NCBI GenBank assembly: GCA_965248835.1
Contig: CBDFLJ010000002.1
Location: 1,792,001-1,856,000, forward strand
DNA: 64,000 nt
From: Alphaproteobacteria bacterium
GTDB lineage: Bacteria > Pseudomonadota > Alphaproteobacteria > MPNO01
Direction of reading: 5' to 3'
Shown here: positions 5,898-52,024 of the stretch, in pieces
Layout of the letters: each line of letters starts with the position of its first letter
Position numbering within the stretch: the stretch's first letter is position 1
Notes under the pieces: model-generated
Databases searched by the model: none
What the model was told of the DNA's origin: nothing
The model's input: the letters and a program-made list of their open reading frames with translations, nothing else
Position numbers and translations under genes: made by a program

Positions 5898-8800
5898 CTA
5901 TTCGGCCGCTACGCGGAATAACCTTTGAAACCTAGCGTCGGTCTCTAGATGCGGCATTGCTGCTCTCATCTTCTCGAGCATCACGCGAAGCGCGTGCAGA
6001 TGTTGAGGTTGCACCCCGTCCTGCCCCACCACTCGGTCGAGAATCTTAAGCGTCACCTCCGGATGCGTTCTGGGCGGTTCGCTGTCGTGAAGGCGATATA
6101 GGTCTCCTTGCGTGGGTTGCAGGTAGTTCAACGACCAGGCGGCTGCTTCTGGAAACGCGTCGCCACACGCCCCACCACTCGGTCGAGAATCTTAAGCGTC
6201 ACCTCCGGATGCGTTCTGGGCGGTTCGCTGTCGTGAAGGCGATATAGGTCTCCTTGCGTGGGTTGCAGGTAGTTCAACGACCAGGCGGCTGCTTCTGGAA
6301 ACGCGTCGCCACACGCTGCGAGCATATTCAGCATGCCTTTCGACGTCGCGGCCGTATTGCGGGCGGCTGCCGGTGGCCAATATCTCTCAAGCCACGGACC
6401 TACTTTCTCGCGCCAGACCTGTGCTTGCTCGGCAGCTTCGCCGGTCAGGCGTTGCGTCAGGCACTCGAGGACTGTTTTCAAGTCTTGCTCCGTCATCGAG
6501 TTCGCAACGCTGCGGCGCTCCTCTTTCGTCAGCTCATTGGGTGCTTCAAGGCAGATCGCCATGAAGATCATCGTGAGATTGTGCTTTGTGCGCGCGCCTA
6601 CCTTGCCGTCTCTCAGTGCTTCGAGGAACGGCTCCTTGATCGCCTGGAGCAGGTCGGGTCCGATAGTCCGGGACCATCCGTAGGCGTACCAGAGATTGGT
6701 CGCCTCCGCCGAGACCTCCAGGCTGAGAAGCGGTATTAGCTGTCTCTTCGCCCAATCCTGGTCCACCGCAAACAAGTACGGCAATCGCGTCGCGAGCATC
6801 ACGCGGCCGAGGTGTCCGCGCGGGTTATCAGCAATCGCATCGAAGTACGGGCGCACAGGTGCCGGCAGGCCATCGCCTGCGCTTGGTTCGTACTTCAGCA
6901 GTCGAAACACCGCTGCATCTGCCAGTTTTCCTGCCGAATCATTCAACGCATCGGTGATCGGGTCGTTCGAATCGACAATCTCGGCGGGTTCTCCCATGCC
7001 GAGCGCGTTCCATGCCTTTGTCCAAAGTGTTTCGACTTCCTGCTCTCGGTCCGTCTCGTACGTGTTCGCTAGTCCCTTCACGAACTCCGCCGCTGCCGAC
7101 CCGACCCCGGCAAGGAGTTCGTCAGGCGCCTTGGCAAGAATGTGGGCTACATGTTTCTGCAATCTGGCATTGGGCTTCCGCCGTTCAGCCGAATTGGCAG
7201 TGGTCCACAGGACCCACTGCCAGTACATTGGGGGCCATTTGTCGTCGGACGTCAGCCGCCGTAGCGCCCGCACGACCTTCACCGGCTTTGCCGCCGCAAG
7301 CCCGCGAAATGCATCTTGTTGAATGCTTTCGTTCTCGAGCGCTGCAGCGACATCGTCGACGTTTGCATCGAGCAGATCCTCCGGCGCCAGTTCCTCCTCG
7401 CCGATCCATCGTGCAGCGCCGTGCCATTTTGTGAACTCGTCCCGCTCGATGGGTTCGCCTTGAGGCGGCGGTTGGTATTCGCTGGCCAGGTTCATGGCCT
7501 TCCTGTCGAGCCGTGCTCCCGATGAAGCGAGCTTGTGAAGGCGCAACGCTTGCTCTCTGCGGATCCGCTCGTCGTAGCCAGGTGGCAATGTTCTTGGCTT
7601 AGTCCTCGGTCCCGCGTGAATGGCTCGCACTATTTCGGTGCGCAGGCTGCGCGGCAGCCGTGACCCTGCCCGTCGAAGGAAGCGCAGCGTCTCGCGGCGA
7701 AGTTCGCTCTCCCATATACCGGGTCTCCGGCCCGCGATGAGCAGCTTTTTCGCCAAGTGGATGTCGGACTTCGGATTCTCGGTAAGGGCGTGAAGAGCCT
7801 GTCTCCGGAACAGTAGCTGCTTCGACAGCGCCCAGCGGTGTAATAGGTTGGCTGCTCGCGCTCTGTCGCTCCCTGCCAACGCTCGATAACCGTCGCGAAC
7901 CAAGTCGATTAGGTGGTTCAATCCTTTCTCATCCTCATCGTGACGTGGATTCTGGTCATGCGCGGCAATCGAAGGTCGGTAGAGGGATGAATCCGGATAG
8001 ACCCCATCAACCTCCTGCGCCAGAGCCAGGGCCTGGTCCAGATAACCTGTCAGCGTTTCCGCGTGTCGTGACAGAACATTTTCCTTCTCGAGAATTTTGT
8101 TGATCTGGTACCGGGACTCCTTATCGCTGACCGCAAGCTTCAGATGACCGCACGCCTCGATGGGTGGAACTGGGCGGTTCTTGCCTTCAACGTGCCGCTC
8201 GAACTCCAGGCGCGGCGCGGGGCCGGGGGCCACAGTGAGCCGCGGCGCCATGCTCTCGACTGCCGCATCTTCGATGCATCGACGCTCCGTGTCCCAGGCG
8301 GCTCTTGCATGCTGGCTGGCGATGAAGAGGAACTTCGCCGTTTCCTCCGGATCCTGGTTCGCGAGGACGGTCCACAGCAGCCTCAGCCTCGGCGCGATCT
8401 TCCTGGACGGGTCGCTTAGATTTGCTTGCACCGAGCTTCGCAACTTCGGGTGCATGTGCCCTCCGCTTCGCAGCACCCAGGCGAGGACCTGGGGCACGTG
8501 CAGATGGCGCGCTATCCAGAAAGCAAGGTGCCCCCTCGTCTTGTCGAGGTTGTTGGGATTCTGTGACTCAAACCCGCTGCCCACGAGCCGCACGAAGATG
8601 GGTGCTTGGTCCCCTGCGCCCGGGTTTGCGTTCGCAGGAGCGCATTGGAGCAACCCCCTTTGCGTGAACATCTCAAGCCACATCTCAATCTTCGGATAGT
8701 CGTTTTCATCCACGATGGGAGGGTTGTAGGCCAGCGCCTCTAAGGCAACCGGGTCTCCCAACGCCCAGATCATTCGTTCGACCACGGGATCGTTCGGTCC

Positions 8801-13073: not shown

Positions 13074-13150
13074 TGGCGCGCCCGGCAGGATTCGAACCTG
13101 CGACCTGCGGATTAGAAGTCCGCTGCTCTATCCGGCTGAGCTACGGGCGC
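13074..13150 (-). tRNA. tRNA-Arg(UCU)
   Basis: GCGCCCGTAGCTCAGCCGGATAGAGC...CTTCTAA...GGTTCGAATCC...GCGCCA; 77 nt. Confidence 0.97.
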
Positions 13151-40046: not shown

Positions 40047-41621
40047 ATGAGCGGTGGGGTCGTGCCCGAAGGCTACCGGGTCTATCCGCCCAGGGTGAAC
40101 ATGTATGCCGAGACTGTGGGGCGTTCGATTGCCGCCGGCTGCGGCGCGATGCCGGCCCTGGTCTGGGACGGCGGCGCGCTGACATACGACGCGCTCGACC
40201 GGGCGGTCGGGCGGGTCGCCGCCGGGCTCCTTGAAGCCGGTCTCAACCAGGGCGATACGATCCTTCTGCGGTCCAACAATCGGCCGGAATCTCCGATCCT
40301 GGCGCTCGCCGCCTTTCGGGTGGGCGCGGTGGCGGTGATGTCGAGCTCGCTGCTGCTCCAGGACGAGGTCGGGTATCTCCTGGAGAACTCCGGCGCGCGG
40401 TTCGCCGCAGCGCCGGCCGATCTCGCCGCACCGCTGGCGGCGCTGCTCGCCGGGGGCGCGCTCGACCGGCTGATCGTGGTCGACGGGCCGGCCGAGACCC
40501 CGGGCCAGATCCCCTACGCGTCCTTCGAGACCAGGGAGCCGATCGGATGGACGGCCGATACCGAGGCGATGGCGCCGGCCTTCATGGTCTATTCATCGGG
40601 CACCACGGGCCGGCCCAAGGGCATATTGCACGGCCACCGCTGGGCGATCACGCTGGGCGATCCGGTGGTGCTGTACAACGAATACGAGCCCGGTGACGTG
40701 ACGATGACGCCGGGCGAATTCAGCTTCATGGGCACTTTCGGCAACAACTTCATCGGCCCGTTGCGCGCGGGCGCAACGATTGCGCTCTATTTCGGGCGCA
40801 CCACCCCCCGCGCGGTCCTCGAGGCGGTGGCGCGGTTCAAGGTGAACAAGTTCCTGAGCGTGCCGACCTTCTACCGCCGGGTGCTGGCCGAGCCCGGCGC
40901 CGAGGACGGGCTCGACCTTTCGGCAGTGCGCTTTTTCACCAGCGCCGGGGAGTCGCTCGGCTCCACCGTGCCCGAGCAATGGTCGCTGCGCTTCGAATTC
41001 CCGATCTACGAGATCTACGGTGTTTCCGAGGTCATGACATGCATGGCCAACACCGCCTACGACGAGGTCAGGTGGGGCTCGATGGGCAAGGCCTTGCCGG
41101 GCTATCGGATGGCGATCATGGACGACCGGCTGGAGGAGGTCGCAGTCGGCGAGCAGGGCCGGCTGATGATCCACCGCGACGATCCCGGCATGTTCCTGTG
41201 CTACCACAACCAATGGGAGAAATGGCAGGCCGCCCACAAGGGTGCGTGGTACGACACCGGCGACGTGATGCGCCAGGACGAGGACGGCTATTACTACTAC
41301 CTCGGACGCAAGGACGACCTGTTCAAGTCGCGCGGCTATTTCATCTCGCCGCAGGAGGTGGAGAACGCGCTGCTGAAGCATCCGGCGATCGCCGAGGCCG
41401 CGGTGATCGGCATCCCGGACGATGCCTACGGCAACCGGATCGCGGCCTTCGCCAGGCTCGCCGGCGGCAGCGCCCCGTCGGCGGCGCTGAGCGAAGAGGT
41501 GCTCGCCCAGACCGCTCGGCGGCTTGCGCCCTACAAGCTGCCCAAATCGCTGGCGTTCCTCGAGGAGATCCCCAAGAACGCGGTCGGCAAGATCCTGCGC
41601 AGCGCGCTGCCGAGACAGTGA
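40047..41621 (+). CDS. Acyl/aryl-CoA synthetase
   Basis: YSSGTTGRPKG, YGVSE, YDTGD, GKILR. Confidence 0.92.
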   Translation: MSGGVVPEGYRVYPPRVNMYAETVGRSIAAGCGAMPALVWDGGALTYDALDRAVGRVAAGLLEAGLNQGDTILLRSNNRPESPILALAAFRVGAVAVMSSSLLLQDEVGYLLENSGARFAAAPADLAAPLAALLAGGALDRLIVVDGPAETPGQIPYASFETREPIGWTADTEAMAPAFMVYSSGTTGRPKGILHGHRWAITLGDPVVLYNEYEPGDVTMTPGEFSFMGTFGNNFIGPLRAGATIALYFGRTTPRAVLEAVARFKVNKFLSVPTFYRRVLAEPGAEDGLDLSAVRFFTSAGESLGSTVPEQWSLRFEFPIYEIYGVSEVMTCMANTAYDEVRWGSMGKALPGYRMAIMDDRLEEVAVGEQGRLMIHRDDPGMFLCYHNQWEKWQAAHKGAWYDTGDVMRQDEDGYYYYLGRKDDLFKSRGYFISPQEVENALLKHPAIAEAAVIGIPDDAYGNRIAAFARLAGGSAPSAALSEEVLAQTARRLAPYKLPKSLAFLEEIPKNAVGKILRSALPRQ

Positions 41622-41631
41622 GCGCAGCCGC

Positions 41632-42402
41632 TTACCAGATCTCGTCCGGGCGCGGATATTCGACCGGGTTGCCCGCGTGATAGACCGGCGCGCGCTTTTC
41701 CAGGAACGCGCTCAGCCCTTCGGCGCAGGCCTGCGTGCGCGACAGCTCCAGCACCCGGTCGATCTCCAACCGCATGTCCTCGGGATTGCGGTCCTTGTTG
41801 CGGTACAGCCGAAGCGTTTCCTTGGCGAACTTGAGCCCGCGGGTCGGATATGACGCGATCCGCCCGGCCCAGGTAAGAGCGGTGTCCATCAGCGCATCGG
41901 CCGGCACGACCTTGTTGGCGAGCCCGATGCGGTGAGCCTCCTCGCCGAGCACGAACCGGCCGGTGAGGATCATCTCGGCCGCGCGGGCGTAACCGATGAT
42001 CTTGGGCAGCACCCGTGGCGAAGCCCACTCGCTCATGAAGCCCGCCGGCACGGCGATCTCGGAGAGCTTCGCGCGATCGGAGACGATCCTGAGATCGCAG
42101 CACAGAGTGAACTCGAACCCCATACCGACGCACACCCCGTCGATCGCAGCGATCGTCGGCATCGGCAGGTCTTCCCACTTGCGGCAGACCTGCTGAGCGA
42201 CCAGGTGGTGATGGTCGTTCATCCACCAGATCACCATGTCCATATAGGCGCCGTCGAGGCCATGGGTTTCCTCGGGGCGCTCGAGCGGGGCGGTCTCGAC
42301 CTTGAGGTCGCCGCCGCCGGAAAAGTTGCCGCCCGAACCGGTCAGGATCACCGCGCGCACGCGCGATTCGCGGATGTCGTCGACGATGCGATCGAGCTCC
42401 AG
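41632..42402 (-). pseudogene. Enoyl-CoA hydratase/isomerase, 5' truncated
   Basis: LELDRIVDDIRESRVRAVILTG..FSGGGDL; N-terminal NRP...NA segment absent and an in-frame TAG lies just upstream. Confidence 0.75.
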
Positions 42403-42538
42403 CGCCGGCGCGGCGGCCCGCGCCGGGATCCGACCAGACTACCGGTTCGGCCGCGGCGGTTCGACGCGCCGCATCGCGTTGCGGCGGCGCGATCTTTCGC
42501 CCGGGCTCCGAAGCAGACAGGACAATGAAGGACAAAAG

Positions 42539-42571
42539 GGGACGTCGTACTTTTTCAAAAAACTGCGTCCC
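42539..42571. repeat. Imperfect inverted repeat at the left island edge
   Basis: GGGACG-TCGTACTTTTTCAAAAAACTG-CGTCCC. Confidence 0.5.
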
Positions 42572-42647
42572 GAACTGGCGAAACCGCCGGCTTGACTCAT
42601 CGGAACTGTAAGATTCTATTACCATGTGTCGGATTAAGGAGGTGCCC

Positions 42648-42953
42648 ATGGATCCCACCGCACTGAAAGGTAAGCTGATCGCCGTCCTCGGCCAGATTCA
42701 GGCCGACAGCGGCCTCGAGTGCCCGGCACTGACCGGCGCCACCAAGCCGATCGAGAACCTGCCCAAGTTCGACAGCAAGGTCTGGCCTGTCGCAATCACG
42801 ATCCTTGCGACCGAGATCGGCGCGACGATCCCGAACGACGTGAACATCTTCGTCGACGAGACGACCAAGCTCCCACGCTCCATCGACGAGACAGCCGTCT
42901 TCGTCTCCGACTTGCTTAGGAAGCAAAGCGAGCAGGAAGCGGCTGCGGCATGA
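42648..42953 (+). CDS. Divergent acyl-carrier-protein-like protein
   Basis: AAGGAGG RBS; 101 aa; ENLPKFDSKVWPVAITILATEIGATIPND aligns by eye to ACP [28 protein letters not shown] (Ser43); acpS in the same cassette. Confidence 0.7.
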   Translation: MDPTALKGKLIAVLGQIQADSGLECPALTGATKPIENLPKFDSKVWPVAITILATEIGATIPNDVNIFVDETTKLPRSIDETAVFVSDLLRKQSEQEAAAA

Positions 42954-43315
42954 CCAAACTCGATTCCGCCAAGCGGGCCCAGATTGCCGAGCGCCTGAAA
43001 GAGGCGCGCAAGCTTGCAGGCCTGTCACAAGGCCATGTCGCCAAGATGCTCGGCCTGCATCGCCCCTCCGTCAGCGAGATGGAAGCCGGCAACCGCCGCG
43101 TCTCAGCCGACGAGCTCGCCCGGCTTGCCGAGATATATGACGTCAGCGTCGTCTGGCTGCTTGGCGAGGCGCCCGAGACACTTGACGCCCAGGACCCGCG
43201 GCTTGAGCTCGCCGCGCGCGAACTCTCAAAACTCAAGCCCGACGACCTGGAACACCTGCTCAAGCTGTTGGCCGCCCTGCGCAGCGATTCCAACGCGACT
43301 GGAGGTGATCGCTGA
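42950..43315 (+). CDS. XRE-family HTH regulator
   Basis: RLKEARKLAGLSQ..VA..LGL.RPSVSEMEAGNR; ATGA overlap. Confidence 0.93.
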   Translation: MTKLDSAKRAQIAERLKEARKLAGLSQGHVAKMLGLHRPSVSEMEAGNRRVSADELARLAEIYDVSVVWLLGEAPETLDAQDPRLELAARELSKLKPDDLEHLLKLLAALRSDSNATGGDR

Positions 43316-44217
43316 TGAACGTGATGCGCACCACCAAGCCCAGCTTCAACCGCCGCGCCCTGGCGACTCAAGCAATGCAGGCCGCCACGGCCACGCGGGC
43401 GAAGGCCGAGCTCGACCAAGCCGGACCGATCTGCATCTACGGGCTGTGCGAGACGCTGGGCATCGTGGTGCGCTTCAACAACATCAACATGGAAGGGATG
43501 TATCAGCGCGGCCTTCCACCACGCATCCATCTCTCGGCACGAAGGCCGCTGCCGCGGCGCACCTACAATTGCGCGCATGAGCTCGGTCATCACGTGTTCG
43601 GCCACGGCTCGTCGATCGACGAACTGCGCGAGGACGCCAAGGCGCAGCCTTGGGAAGACCCAAAGGAGTTCCTGGCCGACACCTTCGCTGGCTTCATCCT
43701 CATGCCGATCATTGGACTGCGCCGCGCCTTCTCGGTCCGGGGTTGGACGCCGGAAACGGCGACGCCGGCGCAGATCTTCACCATCGCTTGCGAGTTCGGC
43801 GTCGGGTACGCGACGCTTCTAACCCACCTCTCGGCAGGCGTGAACATGTTGTCGCGCGGCCGCGCCGCCGCTCTTCAGCGGATCACGCCCAAGGCCCTGC
43901 GCACGGATATCCTCGGTGCGTTGACGCCCGAGCCGCTGATCGTCGCCGATCACCATCGCACCGCGCCCACCTTGGACGCAGAGGTCAAGACGCTGCTTCT
44001 GCTGCCGCCCGGCGCCAAGGTGACGGGCGGCGGACTCGCCTTCGAGCGCGACCTCGCAGCCGGACGCCTGTTCCGGGCGGTGAAGCCAGGGATCTTCCAG
44101 GCAAGCGCCGGTGACTGGGCAGTCTTTGTGCGCCTAGCTCCGGTCCAGAAAAACGAGCCGCACGGCTATGTCGGTCTGGCGCAATACCGGCATCTGGAGG
44201 AGGACCCGGATGAGTAA
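43315..44217 (+). CDS. ImmA/IrrE family zinc metallopeptidase
   Basis: AHELGHH, E..ADTFAG.ILMP; TGATG overlap. Confidence 0.92.
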   Translation: MNVMRTTKPSFNRRALATQAMQAATATRAKAELDQAGPICIYGLCETLGIVVRFNNINMEGMYQRGLPPRIHLSARRPLPRRTYNCAHELGHHVFGHGSSIDELREDAKAQPWEDPKEFLADTFAGFILMPIIGLRRAFSVRGWTPETATPAQIFTIACEFGVGYATLLTHLSAGVNMLSRGRAAALQRITPKALRTDILGALTPEPLIVADHHRTAPTLDAEVKTLLLLPPGAKVTGGGLAFERDLAAGRLFRAVKPGIFQASAGDWAVFVRLAPVQKNEPHGYVGLAQYRHLEEDPDE

Positions 44218-45064
44218 GGCCAGGAATCTGGTGGCGCCGCCGCCCCTGGTGATCGACGACACCAATCTGTCGCGCGCCTGGGCACGGCTGCTTCTGCAGG
44301 TTCTCGACGGCGCCGGCACGGAGGTCGCCCCGTTAATCCTGAGCCTGAGCGGCTTCGCCCAAAACGGCGCCGCCGTCGAAGACCCTGCGGTGCGCCAAGC
44401 CCTCGATCAGCTGCTCAAGCGCAAGGGCCGAATCGTGGTCGAGAACGTCGCGTTCACGATCTTCCCACAGGGGCTCTGGGAGATGTCGCGCGGCGACCGG
44501 ACTCGCCTTTTCGCCCGCTATCGCGCGACATTCCCGCGCTGGCAGGCGATGAACCGCAGGGCCAATGGCCGCGGCCTGTATTTCGAGCGCATGGTCATGT
44601 ACGGGCGCGGCCCGTGCGACGGCAATCAACTGGAGTGGATCTTGTCTCAATTCAATTCCCGGAAGGGCGTGCGCCGTTCGATGCTTCAAGCGACCACCTT
44701 CGATCCAGGCCGCGACCACGTCGCCAGCGCGCAGCTCGGCTTTCCGTGCCTGCAGCAGGTGAGCTTCGAGCCTACCGCGGCCGGGCTCGTTACCAACGCC
44801 TTCTATGCGACCCAGCAGATTTTCGACAAAGCCTATGGCAACTATCTCGGCCTAGCCCAGCTCGGCGCCTTCATGGCCCGTGAGATGGGCATGTCGCTCG
44901 CGCGCCTGAACGTCATGGTCGGGGTCGCCAAGCTCGACCGGATCAACAAGAGCGATGCCGATCTTGTCCCGCTGGTCGCAGCCGCTCGGGCCCTCGTATC
45001 GCCGCCCACTGCCCCGGCGCCGCGAACGCCTATCTCCACTGCGAGCGCCGGAGCAACGCTTTGA
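44210..45064 (+). CDS. Divergent thymidylate synthase-like protein
   Basis: YFERM, NQLE, FPCLQQVSF (catalytic Cys), KAYGNY. Confidence 0.82.
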   Translation: MSKARNLVAPPPLVIDDTNLSRAWARLLLQVLDGAGTEVAPLILSLSGFAQNGAAVEDPAVRQALDQLLKRKGRIVVENVAFTIFPQGLWEMSRGDRTRLFARYRATFPRWQAMNRRANGRGLYFERMVMYGRGPCDGNQLEWILSQFNSRKGVRRSMLQATTFDPGRDHVASAQLGFPCLQQVSFEPTAAGLVTNAFYATQQIFDKAYGNYLGLAQLGAFMAREMGMSLARLNVMVGVAKLDRINKSDADLVPLVAAARALVSPPTAPAPRTPISTASAGATL

Positions 45065-46203
45065 ATGCGAGGTCGCCCAAAGTCCCCAAGAAACGTCCGC
45101 GAGGCCGTCCCCGGAAACCTCGTCCCAGCGCAGTCAACGCATCGCTCCCGATGGAGCTGCCCTTCGCGGTTCGGCCCGCGGCGCCCGCGCCGATCATCCT
45201 GCGCCACCTTGCGCCAGCCACAGTGTCCGAGGTTTATGAGAACTATTGGCGCTTCGCCGCCGAAAGGCAGGCGGTGTTTTTCCGCCGTGTGCGCGGCGAG
45301 ACTCGCCCATGGACGGACAATCCGGTGCTGGCGATTTACAAGTTCACCAACGCCTACCGCGCGTCCGACCGCGTCAGCCAGTATCTCATCCGCCATGTCA
45401 TCTATCGAGACGATCTACCCAAGTCACCGCTCGAAGTGTTCTTCCGCATCCTGCTGTTCAAGCTGTTCAACAAGATCGAGACCTGGGAGCTCCTCGAAGG
45501 CGCGCTCGGCCCAATCACCTTCGAGGACTATCGCTTCGCCGCCCATGACGCCGTGCTCTCGCGCGCGATGCAGACCGGACGTCGCATCTACTCGGCCGCG
45601 TACATCATGCCGCCGGGCAGCCGCTCCTTCGGGCGATCGGCCAAGCACCAGAACCATCTGTTGCTGCTCGAACGCATGATGGCAGATCGGCTTGCCGAGC
45701 GATTGGCCCAGACCCGCACCATGCAGGAGGGCTTCGAGAAGCTGCGTGCCTACCCAACGATCGGCGACTTCCTCGCCTACCAATTCATCACCGACATCAA
45801 TTACAGCGAACTCACCGATTTCAGTGAGATGGACTTCGTCATACCCGGCCCGGGCGCGCGCGACGGCCTGCGAAAATGCTTCGTCGATCCGGGCGGCCTG
45901 AACGAACCCGAGCTCATCCGGCTGATGGCCGACCTGCAAGAACAAGAGTTCGAACGGCTGGGCCTCGACTTCCAATCACTCTGGGGCCGCCGCCTCCAGC
46001 TGATCGACTGCCAGAATCTGTTCTGCGAGGTCGATAAATATGCGCGCGTGGCGCACCCGCAGATCGCGGGAAAGACCGGCCGTGTACGCATCAAGCAGAA
46101 GTTCGTTCCGACCTCGGAGCCGATCGGTTTCTTCTACCCCCCCAAGTGGAAGCTCAACAACAAGATCCGCGTCGCCGCGCTGCAGCGCGCTGCAGCCACG
46201 TGA
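45061..46203 (+). CDS. aGPT-Pplase clade 1 / '5-hmdU DNA kinase helical domain' family base-hypermodification protein
   Basis: FAAERQ.VF..R...PWT.NPVL..YKFTNAYRASDR, IG.FLAYQF..D.NY, GPGA..G, QN.FCE.DKY; TTGA overlap; alternative start ATG 45151. Confidence 0.85.
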   Translation: MNARSPKVPKKRPRGRPRKPRPSAVNASLPMELPFAVRPAAPAPIILRHLAPATVSEVYENYWRFAAERQAVFFRRVRGETRPWTDNPVLAIYKFTNAYRASDRVSQYLIRHVIYRDDLPKSPLEVFFRILLFKLFNKIETWELLEGALGPITFEDYRFAAHDAVLSRAMQTGRRIYSAAYIMPPGSRSFGRSAKHQNHLLLLERMMADRLAERLAQTRTMQEGFEKLRAYPTIGDFLAYQFITDINYSELTDFSEMDFVIPGPGARDGLRKCFVDPGGLNEPELIRLMADLQEQEFERLGLDFQSLWGRRLQLIDCQNLFCEVDKYARVAHPQIAGKTGRVRIKQKFVPTSEPIGFFYPPKWKLNNKIRVAALQRAAAT

Positions 46204-46220
46204 CGCCGAAGGAGACGCGC

Positions 46221-47117
46221 ATGGATTTCAACGGCTATCAGAAGGAGGCGCTGCGCACCGATCGTGTGCCCGCGCGCGACGATGCCACCTCGTTGATCGT
46301 GCCCATGCTTGGCCTTGCCGGCGAAACCGGACAGCTACTCAGCGAATACAAGAAACACTTGCGCGACGGCGAGGCACATCGCCTATTCAAGGACCGCGTG
46401 TCCGAGGAATTGGGCGACCTGCTCTGGTATATCGCCAACGTTGCCAGCAAGTTCGATCTCTCGCTCTCCGACATCGCAGCGGCCAACTTGGCCAAGGTCA
46501 AGCAGCGCTGGGCGAGCGAGCGCGCCGAGCCGTTAACCTTTGACGCCGAGCTTCCCGAACGCGAGCGCCTGCCGCGCCGGTTCGAAGTCGAGGTGATCGA
46601 TGTCGAGGGGGGTGCGCGCCAGCACGTGCGGCTCCTGATCGATGGCAAGCCGCTTGGCGCGGAGCTCACCGACAACGCGTACGATCCCGACGGTTATCGC
46701 TTCCACGACGTCTTCCACTTCGCCTACGCCGCCGTGCTTGGCTGGTCACCAATCACGCGGGGGTTGCTCCGGCGAAAGCGCAAGAGCCGACCGCTGCTCG
46801 ACGAGGTGGAGGACGGCGGCCGCGCGGCCGTCATCGAAGAGGGCGTGGTGGCGCTCACGTTCGACTATGCGCGTCGCCATCACTTCCTCGACGGCGTGGC
46901 CGCCCTCGATTTTCAGTTGCTGCGCACGATCAAGGACATGACGTCCCATCTGGAAGTACGGCGATGCACCACCGGCGAATGGGAGCAAGCCATTCTGCAG
47001 GGCTTCGACGTGTGGCGTGTGGTGCTCGCCGCGCGCGGAGGCCATATCGCCGTCGATCTGGGCGCCCGGCGCATCACCTTTCTAGGCCCGTCCGCCGGTC
47101 AGGAACCGCGCGCATGA
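46221..47117 (+). CDS. MazG-like nucleotide pyrophosphohydrolase with MazG C-terminal domain
   Basis: LGLAGETG, EELGDLLWY, NL.K, LTDNAYD.DGYRFHDVFH, EDGGRA; AAGGAG RBS. Confidence 0.9.
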   Translation: MDFNGYQKEALRTDRVPARDDATSLIVPMLGLAGETGQLLSEYKKHLRDGEAHRLFKDRVSEELGDLLWYIANVASKFDLSLSDIAAANLAKVKQRWASERAEPLTFDAELPERERLPRRFEVEVIDVEGGARQHVRLLIDGKPLGAELTDNAYDPDGYRFHDVFHFAYAAVLGWSPITRGLLRRKRKSRPLLDEVEDGGRAAVIEEGVVALTFDYARRHHFLDGVAALDFQLLRTIKDMTSHLEVRRCTTGEWEQAILQGFDVWRVVLAARGGHIAVDLGARRITFLGPSAGQEPRA

Positions 47118-47503
47118 GCCTCCGCACCCAATGCGAGAACGCTCGCCATCGCCACGCCGCCGGCATGGCTGATGCTGAGCCGCCAAGCGGTCACTCCCAA
47201 CGCCGTGGCGGCCTTCGCCGCGCCGCCCGAAAGTCGGACCTCCGGCGCCGCGCCCGGCGCGCGTTGGATCATCACATCGGTGAAGGCGACCCCTGCCCCG
47301 AAGCCGGTGCCGACCGCCTTGAGCACCGCTTCCTTAGCGGCGAACCGCCCCGCCAGGCGCTCGATCCGATCGACCCCATCGCCGATCTCATCCAGCTCGG
47401 CTTGCACGAAGCAACGCGGAATCAGTGGGTCGCGCGGATCCTCTATCCACCGCCGCATCTCGGCGATGTCCACTAGGTCAATGCCGTGTCCGACGACGTT
47501 CAT
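47099..47503 (-). CDS. acpS: Holo-ACP synthase (4'-phosphopantetheinyl transferase)
   Basis: GHGIDLVDI, LAGRFAAKEAVLKA.GTG, LSISH; GAGGA RBS. Confidence 0.93.
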   Translation of the reverse strand: MNVVGHGIDLVDIAEMRRWIEDPRDPLIPRCFVQAELDEIGDGVDRIERLAGRFAAKEAVLKAVGTGFGAGVAFTDVMIQRAPGAAPEVRLSGGAAKAATALGVTAWRLSISHAGGVAMASVLALGAEAHARGS

Positions 47504-47596
47504 AAGACCCGTTTTTCCTCGAGGCGACACATGAATGGGGCCCCAACGCTCGGGAACGCCGTGAATCAATAATAGAGAGCAGGGGGAAACAAAGCG

Positions 47597-48349
47597 ATGA
47601 CCAAGCTGCCAGCCATGTTCTGGAGCGGGGAGACCCTCAGCGAACGGCTCAAGACGCTGATAGACCCGTTCGTCTCCGGACGAGTGGATTGCGCCGCTTA
47701 TACGCTTTCGATCGGCCCGGAAGTCTATGTGTCGCCCAACGACCAGACCGCCGATCCGACCACGGTCACGATCCGCAAGCTCAGCGAGGGAGAGGCGTTC
47801 ACCATCCCGCCCGGCCAGTTCGCCTTCCTGCTCACCGAGGAGGTCGTCTCCGTCCCAGCGGATGCGCTGGCCTTCATCTCCATTCGAGCGAAGACCAAGT
47901 TCCGTGGTTTGGTCAACGTATCCGGGTTTCATGTTGATCCTGGCTATCGCGGTCAGCTGACGTTCGCGGTCTTCAACGCCGGTCCTGTGCCAGTCCACCT
48001 CAAGCGCGGACAACCGACATTCCTGATCTGGTACGCGAGCCTCGACCGCGAGACCGCCTTCAAGAAGGACGGTACGATTCACAAGGGCATCGATCCCGAG
48101 CTAGTAACGGCCGTCGCCGGCGAACTGCAATCCTTCGCCGGCCTCTCCAAGAAGATTGAGGACGTCGACAAGGCGCTCCGCGACCGCGTCCATGCACTTG
48201 AAAAGGAGCAGACCGGATACCGCGTCATCGGCGCGGTCGCGTTGGCGCTCATGATTGCGCTGACCGTGAACTGGCTTACGGACAGCATCCCGTCTCGTTC
48301 GGCGCCGCCCCCGCAGGCAACATCGCCGTCGCAAGCGCCAACTCAGTAG
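47597..48349 (+). CDS. Dcd/dUTPase-fold protein with C-terminal coiled coil and TM helix
   Basis: IPPGQFA..LTEE, HVDPGYRG.L...FN; hydrophobic VIGAVALALMIALTVNWL near the C-terminus. Confidence 0.85.
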   Translation: MTKLPAMFWSGETLSERLKTLIDPFVSGRVDCAAYTLSIGPEVYVSPNDQTADPTTVTIRKLSEGEAFTIPPGQFAFLLTEEVVSVPADALAFISIRAKTKFRGLVNVSGFHVDPGYRGQLTFAVFNAGPVPVHLKRGQPTFLIWYASLDRETAFKKDGTIHKGIDPELVTAVAGELQSFAGLSKKIEDVDKALRDRVHALEKEQTGYRVIGAVALALMIALTVNWLTDSIPSRSAPPPQATSPSQAPTQ

Positions 48350-48737
48350 ATCGCCACGTCAACCTCGATGGCAGCTCGTCCGACGGGCCTGTCCGGCCCC
48401 GTCGTTCCGCCACGGCGCGCGCCAGCAGGATCGTCAGGCATTGCCAGTGCCCGGCAGCATTCTACCCTTGGCGGTCACGCCGCCGAGATCGGCGTCAATC
48501 GAGATTCCGCCGACGTTGAGGCCCGCCCCATCCCTGCACGCCCTAACGGATACGACCGCCCGGATTGGCGGACGCAGAAAACGGCCGCTGCGGCAGGAAA
48601 CCGGTCGGCTGCACACTCCGCCCCACCCCTCGGCCGAACGAATCCACGGCTTGTCCGAACGAATGCGCCTGTCGCGCGCTCGAATGCGTTGGAATTGAAT
48701 GAATCCGCTTACGGTCTGCTTACGTTACGGCGTTGGA

Positions 48738-48785
48738 TCATCGAACCGAGTCGCGCGTCAGATGCGCGTAGCGCGCCGTCGTCTC
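48738..48785 (-). pseudogene. Tyrosine integrase extreme C-terminal remnant
   Basis: GAGACGACGGCGCGCTACGCGCATCTG... = ETTARYAHLTRDSVR*, the same motif as QTTARYAHL at 21.5 kb. Confidence 0.65.
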
Positions 48786-49856
48786 GGTCCGTCGGATGGA
48801 TCACCACGCCGCGCCCGCACAGATCGATCAGTTGATCGACCATGTGCGGGACGTTCTCGAGATAGTAGGCCCGGCCGAAATCGACGAAGATGTTGTTGGG
48901 CTTATAGAGCCCGCCCGGGGTGAATATCCCGGTTTCTTCGGCGGCGAGCGTGAACGCCCGGCAGGTTTCCCGAAAGCGCACCAGGTCGGCAACCTGGGAT
49001 TGCACGATCGGTGCGGCGTTGGTCCCCAGACTCTCGGTCACAAGAACCGCCAGACCCGCAATCAGCTCCGCATTGATGACGTGACGGGTCTGGGTCTCGA
49101 TATGGATCCAATCGAAGATCCGCTGCGGGTACGGCATCGCATGGTCGAGGTTGCCGAGAGGCCGGACACGGTCCCAGGGGATCAGCACGTCGTCGAAATA
49201 GGCCATGCTGCCGAGTTCGTCGCCTTGGCTCGATAGCGGCCAGTCATATTCGCTCGCCCCGTCCAAAGCGTTGGAACGCCGCGTCACATGGGTGATGTTG
49301 GGATGGTTGACCGGCACCATCGCGAAGACCTCCTGCTCGGGCACGGCTCCCGGCTTCCACAAGATGCCGACCTCGATCTCGTTGGCAAAGACGACCATCG
49401 GCGCGATGGCGCGATCCTGGCTCCGGAGTTCATTCCAGCAATCGCGGATGTTCTGGGCGAAGGGGCCGTCCTTGCCGAAAACGGTCTGCGCCTCCCAGAC
49501 TTCGGGGTCATCGACCAGGGTGAACATGACTGTGTTGGTGCTCCCCGGCGGGCGGGTCCACACCTGGGAGTGACACCAAAAGAACTCGTGTCAGTTGCGC
49601 CGGGCGAGGACGTCTTCCTTCGAGCGCGGCAACATCCAGTGCTTGGCCCGACACTCGCCGTCTTCGTCTGGTGCCGCGGATCGCGGTGCAAATCGTAGTA
49701 GCGCGCGATCATGGCGGCACAACCGCGCGTTTTGGGGTGGGTCGTCAGATCTTCGATTCGTTCACCGTCGCAATAGACGTTCCGCCCGTCTCTGATCGAG
49801 TCGAGATATTCTTCGCCGGTCCGCTCCCTTGATATGCATTTGGTTTCTGGCGACAT
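48786..49856 (-). pseudogene. 4-hydroxyphenylacetate 3-hydroxylase (HpaB/TftD) family, disrupted
   Basis: RTGEEYLDSIRDGRNVY.DGE....THP, FDDVLIPWDRV; frameshifts and a stop near 49570-49660; 3' end replaced by the integrase remnant. Confidence 0.85.
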
Positions 49857-49927
49857 CGAAATGTGTCGTCGATTTCGGGTATAGATTGCCAAGCCCAAAG
49901 TCCAGGATAGTAGCCTGAACTTAAGGC

Positions 49928-52024
49928 CTATTCGACCGTATCCGGCTCGGTTTCGAAGGTGATCAGGTAGTTGTCCAGGCGATCGACGTTCACGCGGTCG
50001 CCGGGGCCGACGACGACGGTGGTCGTCGCCTCCTCGATGATCGCGGGGCCGTGGAAGCTCTGGCCGGGGCGAAGATCGGCGCCGCTGTAGATCGGCGTGT
50101 CCAGAAAGCCCGCGGCGGTTCCGGTGTGGACCGGGCGCCGACCGGACGGCTCGGGCGGGTCCTCGGTGGTCTCCAGCACCACGTCGCGCAGCGGCGGCAG
50201 AGTGCCGATGCCGACCACCCGCAGCTTGGCGACGATGATCCGTCCGCCCGGGTTGGTGTGGCCGAACTGGCGGTCGTATTCGGCCTCGAAGGCTGCGCGA
50301 ATCTCGTCCTCGCCCGCGTCGGCGGCGGCCAGCAGCACGCGCACGTCCCACTGCTGGCCCTCATAGTGCAGGTCGAGTTCGTGCTGGAACCGGGTATCGC
50401 CGGGCTCGAAGCCCTCGCGGCGCAGGGCATCGGTCGTCTGGCGCTCCAGTGACGCGAACCCGGCGGCAACCGCCGGGCCGACCGCGCCGTCGAGCCGGTG
50501 CATCAACACCTGGACGAAGTCGCGGCGCACGTCGGCGTGCTGCATCCCGATCGCGCAGAAGGCGCCCGCCTGGCGCGGCACATAGACCGCGCGCGCGCCC
50601 AGCCGGCGACCGACGCTGGTACCGTGCATCGGGCCCGCGCCGCCGCAAGCGATCAGCATGAACCGGCCGGGGTTGTAGCCGCGCTGGATCGAGATCCGCT
50701 CGACGGCATGGAGCAGGTTCTGCTCGACGATGCGGATGATCCCGACCGCCGCCTCGGCCCGGTCGATGCCGAGCGGTTCGGCGATCGTCTCCTCGATCGC
50801 CTGCTCGGCGGCGGCGAGATCGAGGTTCACCGAGCCGTCGGCATAGGGTCCGGGCCGCAGCCGACCGAGCACCAGATGGGCATCGGTCACCGTCGGCGCG
50901 GTTCCGCCCAGCCCGTAGGCGGCGGGTCCCGGCGCCGCGCCCGCGCCCTGCGGCCCTGCGAACATCATGCCGGCCTGATCGATGCCCGCGATGGTGCCGC
51001 CGCCGGCGCCGACGGTATGGATATCGACCGAGGGCGTGACCAGGTCGTAGTCGTTGACCGAGAGCGCATCGGTGATCGCCACCCTGCCCTCCGACATCAG
51101 CATCACATCGCAACTCGTCCCGCCGATCTCCATGCTGACCAGGTTGGTCTCGCCCAGGCCGCGGGCGAGATGGGCCATCGCGCCGACCCCGGCGGACGGA
51201 CCGGACAGCAGCAGGTTGACCGGCTGCTCGATGAGCTGGTCGAGCGAGGCCGCGCCGCCGTTGCTCTGCAGCATCAAGAGCCGGGTCTTGAGCCCCATCT
51301 CGGACAACCGGTCCGACAGGGCGTGCAGGTAGGAGGCCACGCGCGGCATCACGTAGGCGTTGACCACCGTGGTCGAGCTGCGCTCGTACTCGCCCATGAT
51401 GGGCACGATCTCCGAAGAGACCGAGATCCACGGGCAGACGTCCTCCTCGCGCAAGATTTCTGCGGCGGCGCGTTCGTGGACCGGATTGATGAAACTGTTG
51501 ATCAGGCAGATCGCCACCGACTCGACGCCCTCGGCGCGGAAGGCCGCCGCGGCCGCGCGCACGTCATCGACCGAAAGCGGGGCGCTCTGCGTGCCGTCGG
51601 CATCGATCCGCCCGCGCGCCGGCAGGCGCAAATACCGTGGCACCAGCACCGGCGGATAGGGGGTGCGATGATCCCACGGGTCCTTGCGCAGGCCCCGCCG
51701 CGCTTCCAGGCTGTCGCGGAACCCCGCCGTGGTCAGCAGACCGACGCGCGCGCCCTTGGCTTCGAGCAGCGTGTTGGTCGCAACCGTCGAGCCGTGCAGA
51801 AAAAACGCGCACTCGCCGAGGAACGCCGCGGTCGATAGACCCAGCGCCTGGCATGCGCGCTCGAGCGCGGCGATCACCCCGCGGCCGGGGTCCTCGGTCG
51901 AGGACGGTACCTTGAAGACCTCGGTATGGCCCTCGGCGTCAGCGACCACCAGATCGGTGAAGGTGCCGCCGACATCGACGCCGACGCGCCAGGGCGGGCT
52001 TTCCAGGCTAAGATCGGCGTTCAT
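49928..52024 (-). CDS. Hydantoinase A / oxoprolinase family
   Basis: GVDVGGTFTD, LLSGP.AG, GAGGGT, PTVTDA. Confidence 0.93.
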   Translation of the reverse strand: MNADLSLESPPWRVGVDVGGTFTDLVVADAEGHTEVFKVPSSTEDPGRGVIAALERACQALGLSTAAFLGECAFFLHGSTVATNTLLEAKGARVGLLTTAGFRDSLEARRGLRKDPWDHRTPYPPVLVPRYLRLPARGRIDADGTQSAPLSVDDVRAAAAAFRAEGVESVAICLINSFINPVHERAAAEILREEDVCPWISVSSEIVPIMGEYERSSTTVVNAYVMPRVASYLHALSDRLSEMGLKTRLLMLQSNGGAASLDQLIEQPVNLLLSGPSAGVGAMAHLARGLGETNLVSMEIGGTSCDVMLMSEGRVAITDALSVNDYDLVTPSVDIHTVGAGGGTIAGIDQAGMMFAGPQGAGAAPGPAAYGLGGTAPTVTDAHLVLGRLRPGPYADGSVNLDLAAAEQAIEETIAEPLGIDRAEAAVGIIRIVEQNLLHAVERISIQRGYNPGRFMLIACGGAGPMHGTSVGRRLGARAVYVPRQAGAFCAIGMQHADVRRDFVQVLMHRLDGAVGPAVAAGFASLERQTTDALRREGFEPGDTRFQHELDLHYEGQQWDVRVLLAAADAGEDEIRAAFEAEYDRQFGHTNPGGRIIVAKLRVVGIGTLPPLRDVVLETTEDPPEPSGRRPVHTGTAAGFLDTPIYSGADLRPGQSFHGPAIIEEATTTVVVGPGDRVNVDRLDNYLITFETEPDTVE

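Follow-up and report, generated by a model that had tools for sequence, protein, structure and literature searches.

We analyzed a stretch of 64,000 nucleotides from an Alphaproteobacteria bacterium genome (GenBank assembly GCA_965248835.1, contig CBDFLJ010000002.1, positions 1,792,001 to 1,856,000 of the forward strand), hereafter the window, and found that the open reading frame (ORF) at 47597-48349 encodes a protein with the fold of Dcd and dUTPase followed by a coiled coil, one transmembrane (TM) helix and a Pro/Ser-rich tail. We named the family of this protein DCD-TM. The gene is the last in a cassette of 8 genes (5.8 kb, 42590-48349) that moves horizontally as a unit and is probably to be regarded as a putative anti-phage system. 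This context is the main determinant of the meaning of DCD-TM, which is the signature membrane subunit of the cassette and not a lone effector. Among the roles that it could play, the one that we tentatively favor is that of a putative non-deaminase, trimeric nucleotide receptor acting as the membrane effector or sensor of the cassette.

The ORF lies on the forward strand, starts with ATG, encodes 250 residues and carries a coding signature in its base composition (G+C of 0.78 at third codon positions vs 0.46 at second positions). Pfam PF22769 ('dCTP deaminase-like') covers residues 12-140 with an E value of 2.6e-16 (60.5 bits vs a cut-off of 27), and the NCBIfam equivalog model for dCTP deaminase, TIGR02274, gives 72.4 bits, under its cut-off of 92.8. 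The 2 NCBIfam dut models give 24.3 and 17.9 bits, under cut-offs of 102.55 and 103. None of the PADLOC families, including the models of the defense dCTPdeaminase system, matched the protein at E <= 0.01. An AlphaFold2 model built from a 48-row alignment (mean pLDDT 91.8, pTM 0.75; the single-sequence model was useless, with pLDDT 36.3) shows a Dcd-like beta core over residues 1-150, a short helix at 167-174 and an unbroken helix at 180-230 that spans both the stalk and the TM segment. Compared with the PDB by Foldseek, this model reached probability 1.00 to structures of Dcd, Dcd-Dut and archaeal dUTPases, the best matches being 4xjc (E 8e-13) and 8y1w (1e-12), with E. coli Dcd 1xs1 at 3e-11. 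The likeness to E. coli Dcd (1xs1/1xs4; PF22769), with TM-scores of 0.67-0.78 on the target, extends to the predicted trimer interface, the Asp of the DPG hairpin and the FN motif, whereas the coiled coil, the TM helix and the tail are additions of DCD-TM. Along the forward strand the protein thus divides into the Dcd/dUTPase-fold core (residues 1-150, 47597-48046), defined by Pfam, the alignments, AlphaFold2 and Foldseek; a lid or linker (151-179, 48047-48133); a coiled-coil stalk (180-209, 48134-48223); the single TM helix (210-228, 48224-48280); and a Pro/Ser/Ala/Thr-rich, putatively extracytoplasmic tail (229-250 plus the stop codon, 48281-48349).

To describe the family we relied on 2 protein searches. 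Of 5146 candidates from a word-index search, 3947 passed E <= 1e-3, and the 120 that scored best are 78-100% identical to the window protein and mostly about 250 residues long; an exhaustive search of representatives clustered at 50% identity returned 2686 clusters at E <= 1e-3, of which 491 reached E <= 1e-30. The best 150 representatives, once 19 fragments or chimeras had been dropped, yielded a set of 132 sequences (the query plus 131 of 215-330 residues), to which the residue counts below refer. Alignment with E. coli Dcd (1xs4/2j4h), by phmmer and by profile, places IRAKTKFRGL of DCD-TM opposite GRSSLARLGL and LTFAVFN opposite IVLEFYN, so that Ser111, the Arg115 column and Glu138 of the enzyme correspond to A98, F102 and A124. 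Glu138 of E. coli, like E145 of M. jannaschii, is the catalytic Glu of Dcd, and both have been probed, since E138A/D and E145A/Q variants are among the fold matches in the PDB. Across the family the Glu138 column holds Ser (65), Ala (53), Gly (11) or Thr (3) and never Glu (0/132), and the column of Ser111, the motif-II Ser, is Ala in 86, Ser in 34 and Thr in 11. The Asp of the YDL/VDL motif, presumably dUTPase motif I, is present in all 3 aligned enzymes (4xjc, 8y1w and 9ln0); its place is taken by T36 in DCD-TM and by Thr (69), Arg (17), Glu (12), Gln (9), Lys (6) and other residues in the family, with no Asp in any of the 132. The preliminary description of the gene, made by eye, had reported a Dcd fold that lacks the catalytic Ser, Arg and Glu and keeps the DPG motif. 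The multiple alignment with Dcd and Dut bears out both points and adds the loss of the motif-I Asp, on which it had not remarked.

What the family has kept is equally distinctive. The Asp of the DPG hairpin (motif III, which contacts the deoxyribose) is D114 within HVDPGYRG and is Asp in 128/132, and N127 (132), S109, G110 and F111 (131 each), K101 and H112 (130 each) and Q74 (127) are near-invariant. Position 97 is basic in 128 sequences, preserving as R97 the basic residue at the position of Dcd R110, and basic residues persist at the phosphate-binding positions K/R97, K101 and K/R103. The invariant core of the family comprises G40, I70, Q74, K101, G104, S109-H112, G119 and N127, together with N107, and its motif GL[VI]N[VI]SGFH reads GLVNVSGFH in the window protein. 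A pocket pattern of T/R-K/R-A-K-H-D-A/S is identical across all 4 cassette architectures described below. Alignments to solved enzymes stop by residue 155, and no P-loop-like motif of the C-terminal arm (motif V) was seen in DCD-TM. Because D114 and several basic residues are kept, the pocket would still bind a pyrimidine deoxynucleotide. From these columns we infer that DCD-TM is not a dCTP deaminase, and it is probably not a canonical Mg-dependent dUTPase either; the public name 'dCTP deaminase' is almost certainly wrong for the family, because the catalytic Glu is absent from every member examined. Absence of the Glu alone does not exclude catalysis, since the archaeal dUTPases 8y1w and 9ln0 also lack it and have Met there.

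The hydrophobic segment of DCD-TM, VIGAVALALMIALTVNWLT, occupies residues 210-228 (48224-48280) with a 19-residue Kyte-Doolittle mean of 2.09, 3 bases longer than the approximate 48224-48277 first proposed together with a helical linker. Calling as TM any 19-residue window after the core with a mean of at least 1.6, we found such a segment in 122/132 family sequences, at a median of 63.5 residues past the core, and in 75 of 81 complete ORFs from the retrieved loci, across all cassette types; an N-terminal hydrophobic segment was found in 0/132. The presence and position of the TM helix are thus conserved in the family. In 90 of 121 sequences, more Lys and Arg precede the helix than follow it, an excess which implies an N-in, C-out topology, and the tail is rich in Pro (13.7%), Ser (11.5%), Ala (10.7%) and Thr (8.3%) across the family. 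By these compositional cues DCD-TM would be tail-anchored, with its head in the cytoplasm and its tail outside the cell. The lid shows moderate conservation at I165, G175 and S179, and 92 of 124 sequences have a basic residue at position 157. Of these residues S179, which stands at the N-terminal end of the stalk helix, was considered as a phosphopantetheine acceptor and rejected, being Thr in 15/132 and orf109 of the cassette being a better carrier candidate.

Nucleotide sites in the Dcd/dUTPase superfamily are located at inter-subunit interfaces, and the preliminary description had suggested that DCD-TM is trimeric. When 3 copies of the protein were submitted to ESMFold2, the homotrimer was predicted with an ipSAE of 0.80, vs 0.00 for the best of 3 controls; the calibration mark used for this score is reached by 20 of 30 proteins solved as one-chain pairs and, among those solved as single chains, by 1 of 23. 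Contacts agreed between runs to at least 90%, and the pLDDT of the partner was at least 77. Dcd trimers have already been solved, so the interface of the heads may be remembered by the predictor, and the contacts over residues 183-226 are the new part of the model. Those in the stalk are heptad-spaced (183/184, 187, 190/191, 194/195, 198, 201/202, 205 and 208/209), and the series describes a 3-helix coiled coil that carries on through the TM segment. In the heads, the invariant residues 95-98, 101-106, 108-116, 124 and 126-131 lie in the interface between subunits, D114 is in contact with residues 32-34, and A124 with residue 102, of the neighboring chain, and residues 147-157 pack on the neighboring subunit. 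On this model DCD-TM would form a trimer with 3 inter-subunit pockets for pyrimidine deoxynucleotides, a 3-helix stalk and a 3-helix TM bundle.

The 7 genes that accompany DCD-TM (47597-48349, forward, the terminal gene) combine a regulatory pair with enzymes related to 5-hydroxymethyl-pyrimidine metabolism. On the forward strand, orf109 (42624-42953; translation may in fact start at the ATG of 42648) encodes a small conserved protein of 109 residues. It is followed by an XRE-family helix-turn-helix regulator (42950-43315; Pfam HTH_3, 1.6e-14) and an ImmA/IrrE (M78) metallopeptidase (43315-44217; Pfam Peptidase_M78, 8.3e-15; PADLOC capP, 5.9e-10). Next, still on the forward strand, lie a divergent enzyme of the thymidylate synthase (TS) superfamily resembling pyrimidine C5 hydroxymethylases (44168-45064), an HMUDK_hel protein annotated as 'putative DNA base hypermodification protein' (45061-46203; Pfam PF18723, 1.2e-110) and a fusion of MazG pyrophosphohydrolase with MazG_C (46146-47117; Pfam MazG_C 5.9e-77, MazG 6.9e-5). 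The TS-like protein matches NCBIfam TIGR03283 at 3.6e-9, under its cut-off, and weakly the CMP 5-hydroxymethylase 5b6d (E 0.021), with the Cys of its FPC motif opposite the Cys of VAC. An AcpS-type 4'-phosphopantetheinyl transferase (47099-47503, reverse strand; Pfam ACPS 9.7e-14; TIGR00516 68.3 bits vs a cut-off of 59.8) is divergent from DCD-TM. PADLOC gave nothing for the TS-like, HMUDK_hel, MazG or AcpS-like proteins, and a search of 41500-50500 with Rfam gave 0 matches at E <= 0.1.

The orf109 product probably is a divergent phosphopantetheine carrier protein, which its sequence offers as a lead only. Residues P47, S51 and W54, within LPKFDSKVWP, are invariant over 18 aligned homologues, 1 of which matches Pfam PP-binding at E 0.052. 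Of 30 matches in the ESM Atlas, 11 belong to a set (score 0.93) in whose clusters 23% of members have PF00550 PP-binding, and the orf109 profile found chance-level matches only (E >= 1) in the PDB. The cassette thus pairs its own AcpS-type phosphopantetheinyl transferase with a carrier-like protein beside a TS-like enzyme.

To learn how far this set of genes holds together, we scanned a collection of 185,579 species genomes with the family alignment and the pattern GL[VI]N[VI]SGFH, which gave at least 511 relatives of DCD-TM, and examined the best 80 loci. In tblastn searches with the window proteins these contained HMUDK_hel in 67, ImmA in 60, MazG in 55, the TS-like gene in 54, XRE in 53, the AcpS-like gene in 48 and orf109 in 38. 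With 2 plasmid loci and variant queries added, the resulting 82 loci contained the TS-like gene in 69, HMUDK_hel in 68, a carrier-like ORF, XRE and ImmA in 62 each, MazG in 56 and the AcpS-like gene in 50; a C1 peptidase occurs in 25, UDG in 9, TIR in 6 and Nmad2 in 6, and 3 loci hold none of these. Because it is found in 50 of the 82 loci, with position and orientation preserved in the type to which the window belongs, the AcpS-like gene is a member of the cassette and not a housekeeping gene.

Four architectures recur. Type A (37/82) has the gene order of the window with the reversed AcpS-like gene; type B (15/82) has a C1 peptidase and 2 further genes of no assigned function, carries DCD-TM inside the operon and lacks MazG; type C (8/82) has UDG and MazG without HMUDK_hel; and type D (6/82) has a ThsB-like TIR and Nmad2 without XRE/ImmA. 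Genes for TIR, Nmad2 and SLOG proteins neighbor DCD-TM in variant loci, and elsewhere genes for caspase and pYEATS proteins do so. UDG replaces HMUDK_hel beside MazG-MazG_C in a locus on an Acuticoccus plasmid (9015-9689 of locus L081) and in 8 further loci, a hint that the mechanism there involves uracil or one of its derivatives in DNA. Other cassettes carry an ImmA with a C-terminal chagasin-like Inhibitor_I42 domain followed by a gene for a papain-family C1 peptidase (loci L052, L061, L071 and L042; L081 at 7591-8316; L082 at 5936-6586), and this is a protease/inhibitor pair within the regulatory module.

DNA similarity between the window and the cassettes of other genomes is bounded, beginning at 42581-42608 and ending at 48210-48366. 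This confinement to 42581-48366 shows that a 5.8 kb block moves as a unit, with DCD-TM as its last gene. Proteobacterial hosts include Alpha-, Beta- and Gammaproteobacteria; others are Acidobacteriota, Binatia, Gemmatimonadota-type and Planctomycetota metagenome-assembled genomes and one such genome of Actinomycetota (88% identity). Binning of these assemblies may be wrong; isolates, among them Bradyrhizobium, Afipia, Sphingomonas and Pseudomonas syringae, also carry the family. Members occur in 9 plasmid records, and 0 of 50,697 phage records covered at least 80% of DCD-TM, their matches being ordinary homologues of the Dcd core only. The G+C content of 42500-50000, the cassette and its right flank, is 0.59-0.67, slightly below the 0.67-0.73 of the DNA on either side, as would be expected if it had been acquired. 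Beside the cassette there is no integrase, transposase or tRNA gene, the nearest tRNA genes of the window being at 13074 and 16646.

At its right border we observed a decayed HpaB-like gene (4-hydroxyphenylacetate 3-hydroxylase; 48709-49820, reverse strand), with HpaB_N positions 1-63 in the ORF 49284-50351, positions 185-268 in another frame (48709-49563) and a C-terminal domain cut at 122/202 in that same frame. A search for fusions gave only 2 longer proteins, one of 472 residues without an extra domain. The other, which has IS110 transposase domains (PF01548/PF02371) and is named 'IS110 family transposase', looks like a chimera. The metagenomic protein P0106 (436 residues), an apparent fusion of DCD with an M78 domain, was rejected as such, being a truncated ImmA that continues in frame into the beginning of DCD-TM. 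It is a deletion derivative that has lost the TS-like, HMUDK_hel, MazG and AcpS-like genes and shows that cassettes decay in nature.

The upstream regions point to 2 units of expression in type A. The putative promoter and operator of the cassette (42591-42622, forward strand) consist of a CTTGAC box followed by the palindrome GTAAGATTCTATTAC at 42608-42622, which occurs once in the 64 kb window vs 0.14 expected by chance. The consensus CTTGAC...GTAAGATTATCTTAC is conserved upstream of orf109 in the window and in 21 type A loci, and the palindrome is probably the XRE operator, overlapping the promoter. It was looked for and not found upstream of DCD-TM. Where the AcpS-like and DCD-TM genes diverge, the 93-nt spacer that separates them has a conserved box of its own, AATAATAGA, about 25 nt before the ATG; consensus scans for promoters and terminators gave no more than chance. 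On these motifs, DCD-TM and the AcpS-like gene of type A would be expressed independently of the XRE-controlled operon.

The nearest system with demonstrated activity is DS-4, an anti-phage system predicted by DefensePredictor and validated in E. coli, whose components are TS, a dNMP kinase, HMUDK_hel, a TIR/NDT-like protein and Nmad2 (PMC13092281). HMUDK_hel and a TS-superfamily enzyme are common to DS-4 and the window cassette, and DS-4 lacks DCD-TM, MazG-MazG_C, XRE/ImmA and the AcpS-like protein; in turn, the window cassette lacks TIR, Nmad2 and the dNMP kinase. A locus of Pseudomonas syringae pv. cilantro (L026, 8001-14662) has DCD-TM, HMUDK_hel, MazG-MazG_C, a ThsB-like TIR and Nmad2 in a row, with an SLOG-cluster2 protein and a TIR protein adjoining on the other strand; it resembles a defense island and forms a bridge to DS-4. 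The DefensePredictor paper also names aGPT-Pplase, MazG, MazG-C ('predicted nucleotide kinase'), dUTPase, NMAD and UDG domains in predicted, unvalidated systems, and attributes the prediction of a defense role for domains of this kind to Burroughs et al. 2015 (PMC13092281). One of its tables, of uncharacterised clusters, includes WP_002991659.1 (283 residues, 'deoxycytidine triphosphate deaminase'), labeled 'Predicted novel defense gene' on a mean log-odds of 5.05, with predicted_defensive = 1 (PMC13092281). This protein carries the DCD-TM family motif and, by eye, a stalk and a hydrophobic segment. A full-text literature search retrieved no TM-bearing Dcd-like protein except in DefensePredictor, and no experimental work on the family. 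Among the relatives only DS-4, a distant cousin, is known to stop phages, and the DCD-TM family itself has one machine-learning prediction.

The preliminary description had proposed a trimeric receptor for a modified dNTP in bacterial immunity. Its framing of the gene as acting alone falls with the 8-gene cassette, and its core gains from the linkage to modified-pyrimidine metabolism and to genes of immunity type. We lean toward a receptor and effector because of the hydrophobic segment noted in DCD-TM, the promoter of its own in type A and a geometry that runs from lid to rigid stalk to TM helix; among the cassette proteins of the window the hydrophobic segment is noted in DCD-TM only, the protein that the hydrophobicity scan covered. 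In such a scheme, DCD-TM of the window type of cassette would be pre-positioned in the membrane from its own promoter, and in response to phage or DNA stress ImmA would relieve repression by removing XRE. A non-canonical pyrimidine nucleotide would then be made by the enzymes (TS-like, HMUDK_hel and MazG), and the ligand of DCD-TM would be either this product or a nucleotide of phage origin. The closing of the lid (residues 150-179) could be transmitted through the stalk to the TM bundle, which would perturb the membrane or relay a signal, so that the infection is aborted.

A bolder version joins several of these elements, and as a whole we consider it unlikely. It would make DCD-TM the first immune receptor of dUTPase/Dcd fold, its trimer catalytically disarmed and its ligand a 5-substituted pyrimidine dNTP, which either a DNA-modifying phage or the TS-like, HMUDK_hel and MazG enzymes would supply. 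Lid closure would re-register the 3-helix coiled coil that runs into the 3-helix TM bundle, the membrane barrier would collapse and the infection abort, and the nucleotide chemistry would use a carrier, orf109, phosphopantetheinylated by the AcpS-like enzyme. We know of no defense system that uses a phosphopantetheinylated carrier in nucleotide chemistry.

Comparison with established systems places this receptor proposal in a known design. The TM effectors of CBASS, Pycsar and type II Thoeris are ligand-gated and act in abortive infection. Like them, DCD-TM joins a putative small-molecule-binding domain in the cytoplasm to TM sequence and is encoded beside possible ligand-making enzymes; unlike them, its sensor would be a Dcd/dUTPase trimer, with a single C-terminal TM helix per protomer. 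A Dcd-family domain also serves immunity in the defense dCTP deaminase system, which, as Tal and colleagues are said to have reported in 2022, depletes dCTP. DCD-TM differs from it in having no PADLOC match and no kinase-like domain (the kinase association of that system was seen in a single row of a supplement), and depletion of dCTP by deamination is unexpected for DCD-TM because the catalytic Glu is absent. Phage pathways of thymidine hypermodification (5-hmdU, 5-HMUDK, aGPT-Pplase/AADT) share families of 5-hydroxymethyl-pyrimidine enzymes and a dUMP hydroxymethylase neighborhood with the cassette (PMC8989533). The cassette is nonetheless cellular or plasmid-borne, is under XRE/ImmA control and has neither a P-loop kinase nor an aGPT-Pplase domain.

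Several observations weigh against DCD-TM as the receptor and effector. DS-4 works without DCD-TM, and in some variant loci TIR and Nmad2 could be the effector in its place. In type B, DCD-TM lies inside the operon, so a constitutive receptor cannot be the rule for all types. The sequence of the TM helix is itself unconserved, and one helix per protomer fits a plain anchor equally well. The very high conservation of the polar pocket residues (K101, H112, S109, N107 and Q74) would equally suit a new catalytic site. Finally, a search of the PDB with the family profile ranks archaeal Dcd-type monofunctional dUTPases first (8y1w, 3.3e-21; 9ln0, 5e-21), ahead of the B. halodurans Dcd-Dut (2e-15) and E. 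coli Dcd (1e-10).

The last 2 points bear most directly on the strongest alternative, rather doubtful in our judgment, that DCD-TM is a membrane-tethered, dUTPase-like (deoxy)nucleoside triphosphate pyrophosphatase. Its substrate would be dUTP, dTTP, dCTP or the modified dNTP of the cassette, its active site would be re-tooled from K101, H112, S109 and N107, and it would feed dUMP or another dNMP to the TS-like enzyme or remove a leaked toxic product, with the TM helix serving only to localize it. Its best profile matches, the archaeal dUTPases, likewise lack the deaminase Glu (Met there), and DCD-TM shares with such enzymes the motif-III Asp (128/132) and basic phosphate-binding residues. A TS-like enzyme, which would need a dNMP, is present in 69 of the 82 loci, and the P. 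syringae-type loci have DCD-TM and MazG-MazG_C in place of the TS and dNMP kinase of DS-4. Phage 5-hmdU pathways cluster likewise with dUMP hydroxymethylase (PMC8989533), and DefensePredictor labels a 'dUTPase' domain in predicted systems of a similar kind (PMC13092281).

However, the archaeal dUTPases keep the motif-I Asp and the motif-II Ser (their RSS and YDL motifs) and are soluble proteins of about 155 residues without stalk or TM helix, whereas the Asp is absent from 132/132 members of the family and the Ser is Ala in 86/132, including the window protein. DCD-TM has no C-terminal motif of dUTPase type, its C-terminus being stalk and TM helix, and its scores against the NCBIfam dut models (24.3 and 17.9) fall far under their cut-offs. 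The MazG of the cassette is already a pyrophosphohydrolase, and mere localization leaves the conserved TM helix unexplained. The membrane-anchored dUTPase, offered at the outset as the alternative to a receptor, is thereby weakened.

A third possibility, which we consider improbable, is a regulatory or scaffolding pseudo-enzyme, in which the trimer would tether XRE, ImmA, the carrier-like protein or one of the enzymes at the membrane and a nucleotide cue would release the partner, on the model of the trimeric dUTPases that bind the Stl repressor. The combination of lost catalytic residues with a conserved pocket agrees with it, as do the linkage to XRE/ImmA (62/82 loci), the promoter outside the operon in the window type and the presence of the dUTPase-Stl complexes 7pwx and 8p8o among the fold matches. 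Against it stand type D, in which DCD-TM occurs without XRE/ImmA (6/82), and the origin by deletion of P0106, the sole protein that resembles a fusion of ImmA with DCD. The reading as an ordinary housekeeping dCTP deaminase, which automatic annotation suggests through the names 'dCTP deaminase' and 'deoxycytidine triphosphate deaminase' given to relatives and through the Pfam DCD match, is extremely implausible given the family-wide absence of the catalytic Glu, a TIGR02274 score (72.4 bits) under its cut-off of 92.8, the TM helix, a mobile cassette with unconserved flanks and the finding of the family in only 511 of 185,579 species genomes.

The DCD-TM family marks a compact cassette, spread over several phyla and onto plasmids, that brings together damage- or phage-responsive control by XRE and ImmA, enzymes of 5-hydroxymethyl-pyrimidine type, a phosphopantetheinyl transferase with its probable carrier, and a membrane protein. 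A decision between receptor, effector and tethered pyrophosphatase for DCD-TM would make clear by what means defense cassettes that modify nucleotides kill or signal, and could reveal a new ligand-gated membrane module made from the fold of a housekeeping enzyme.

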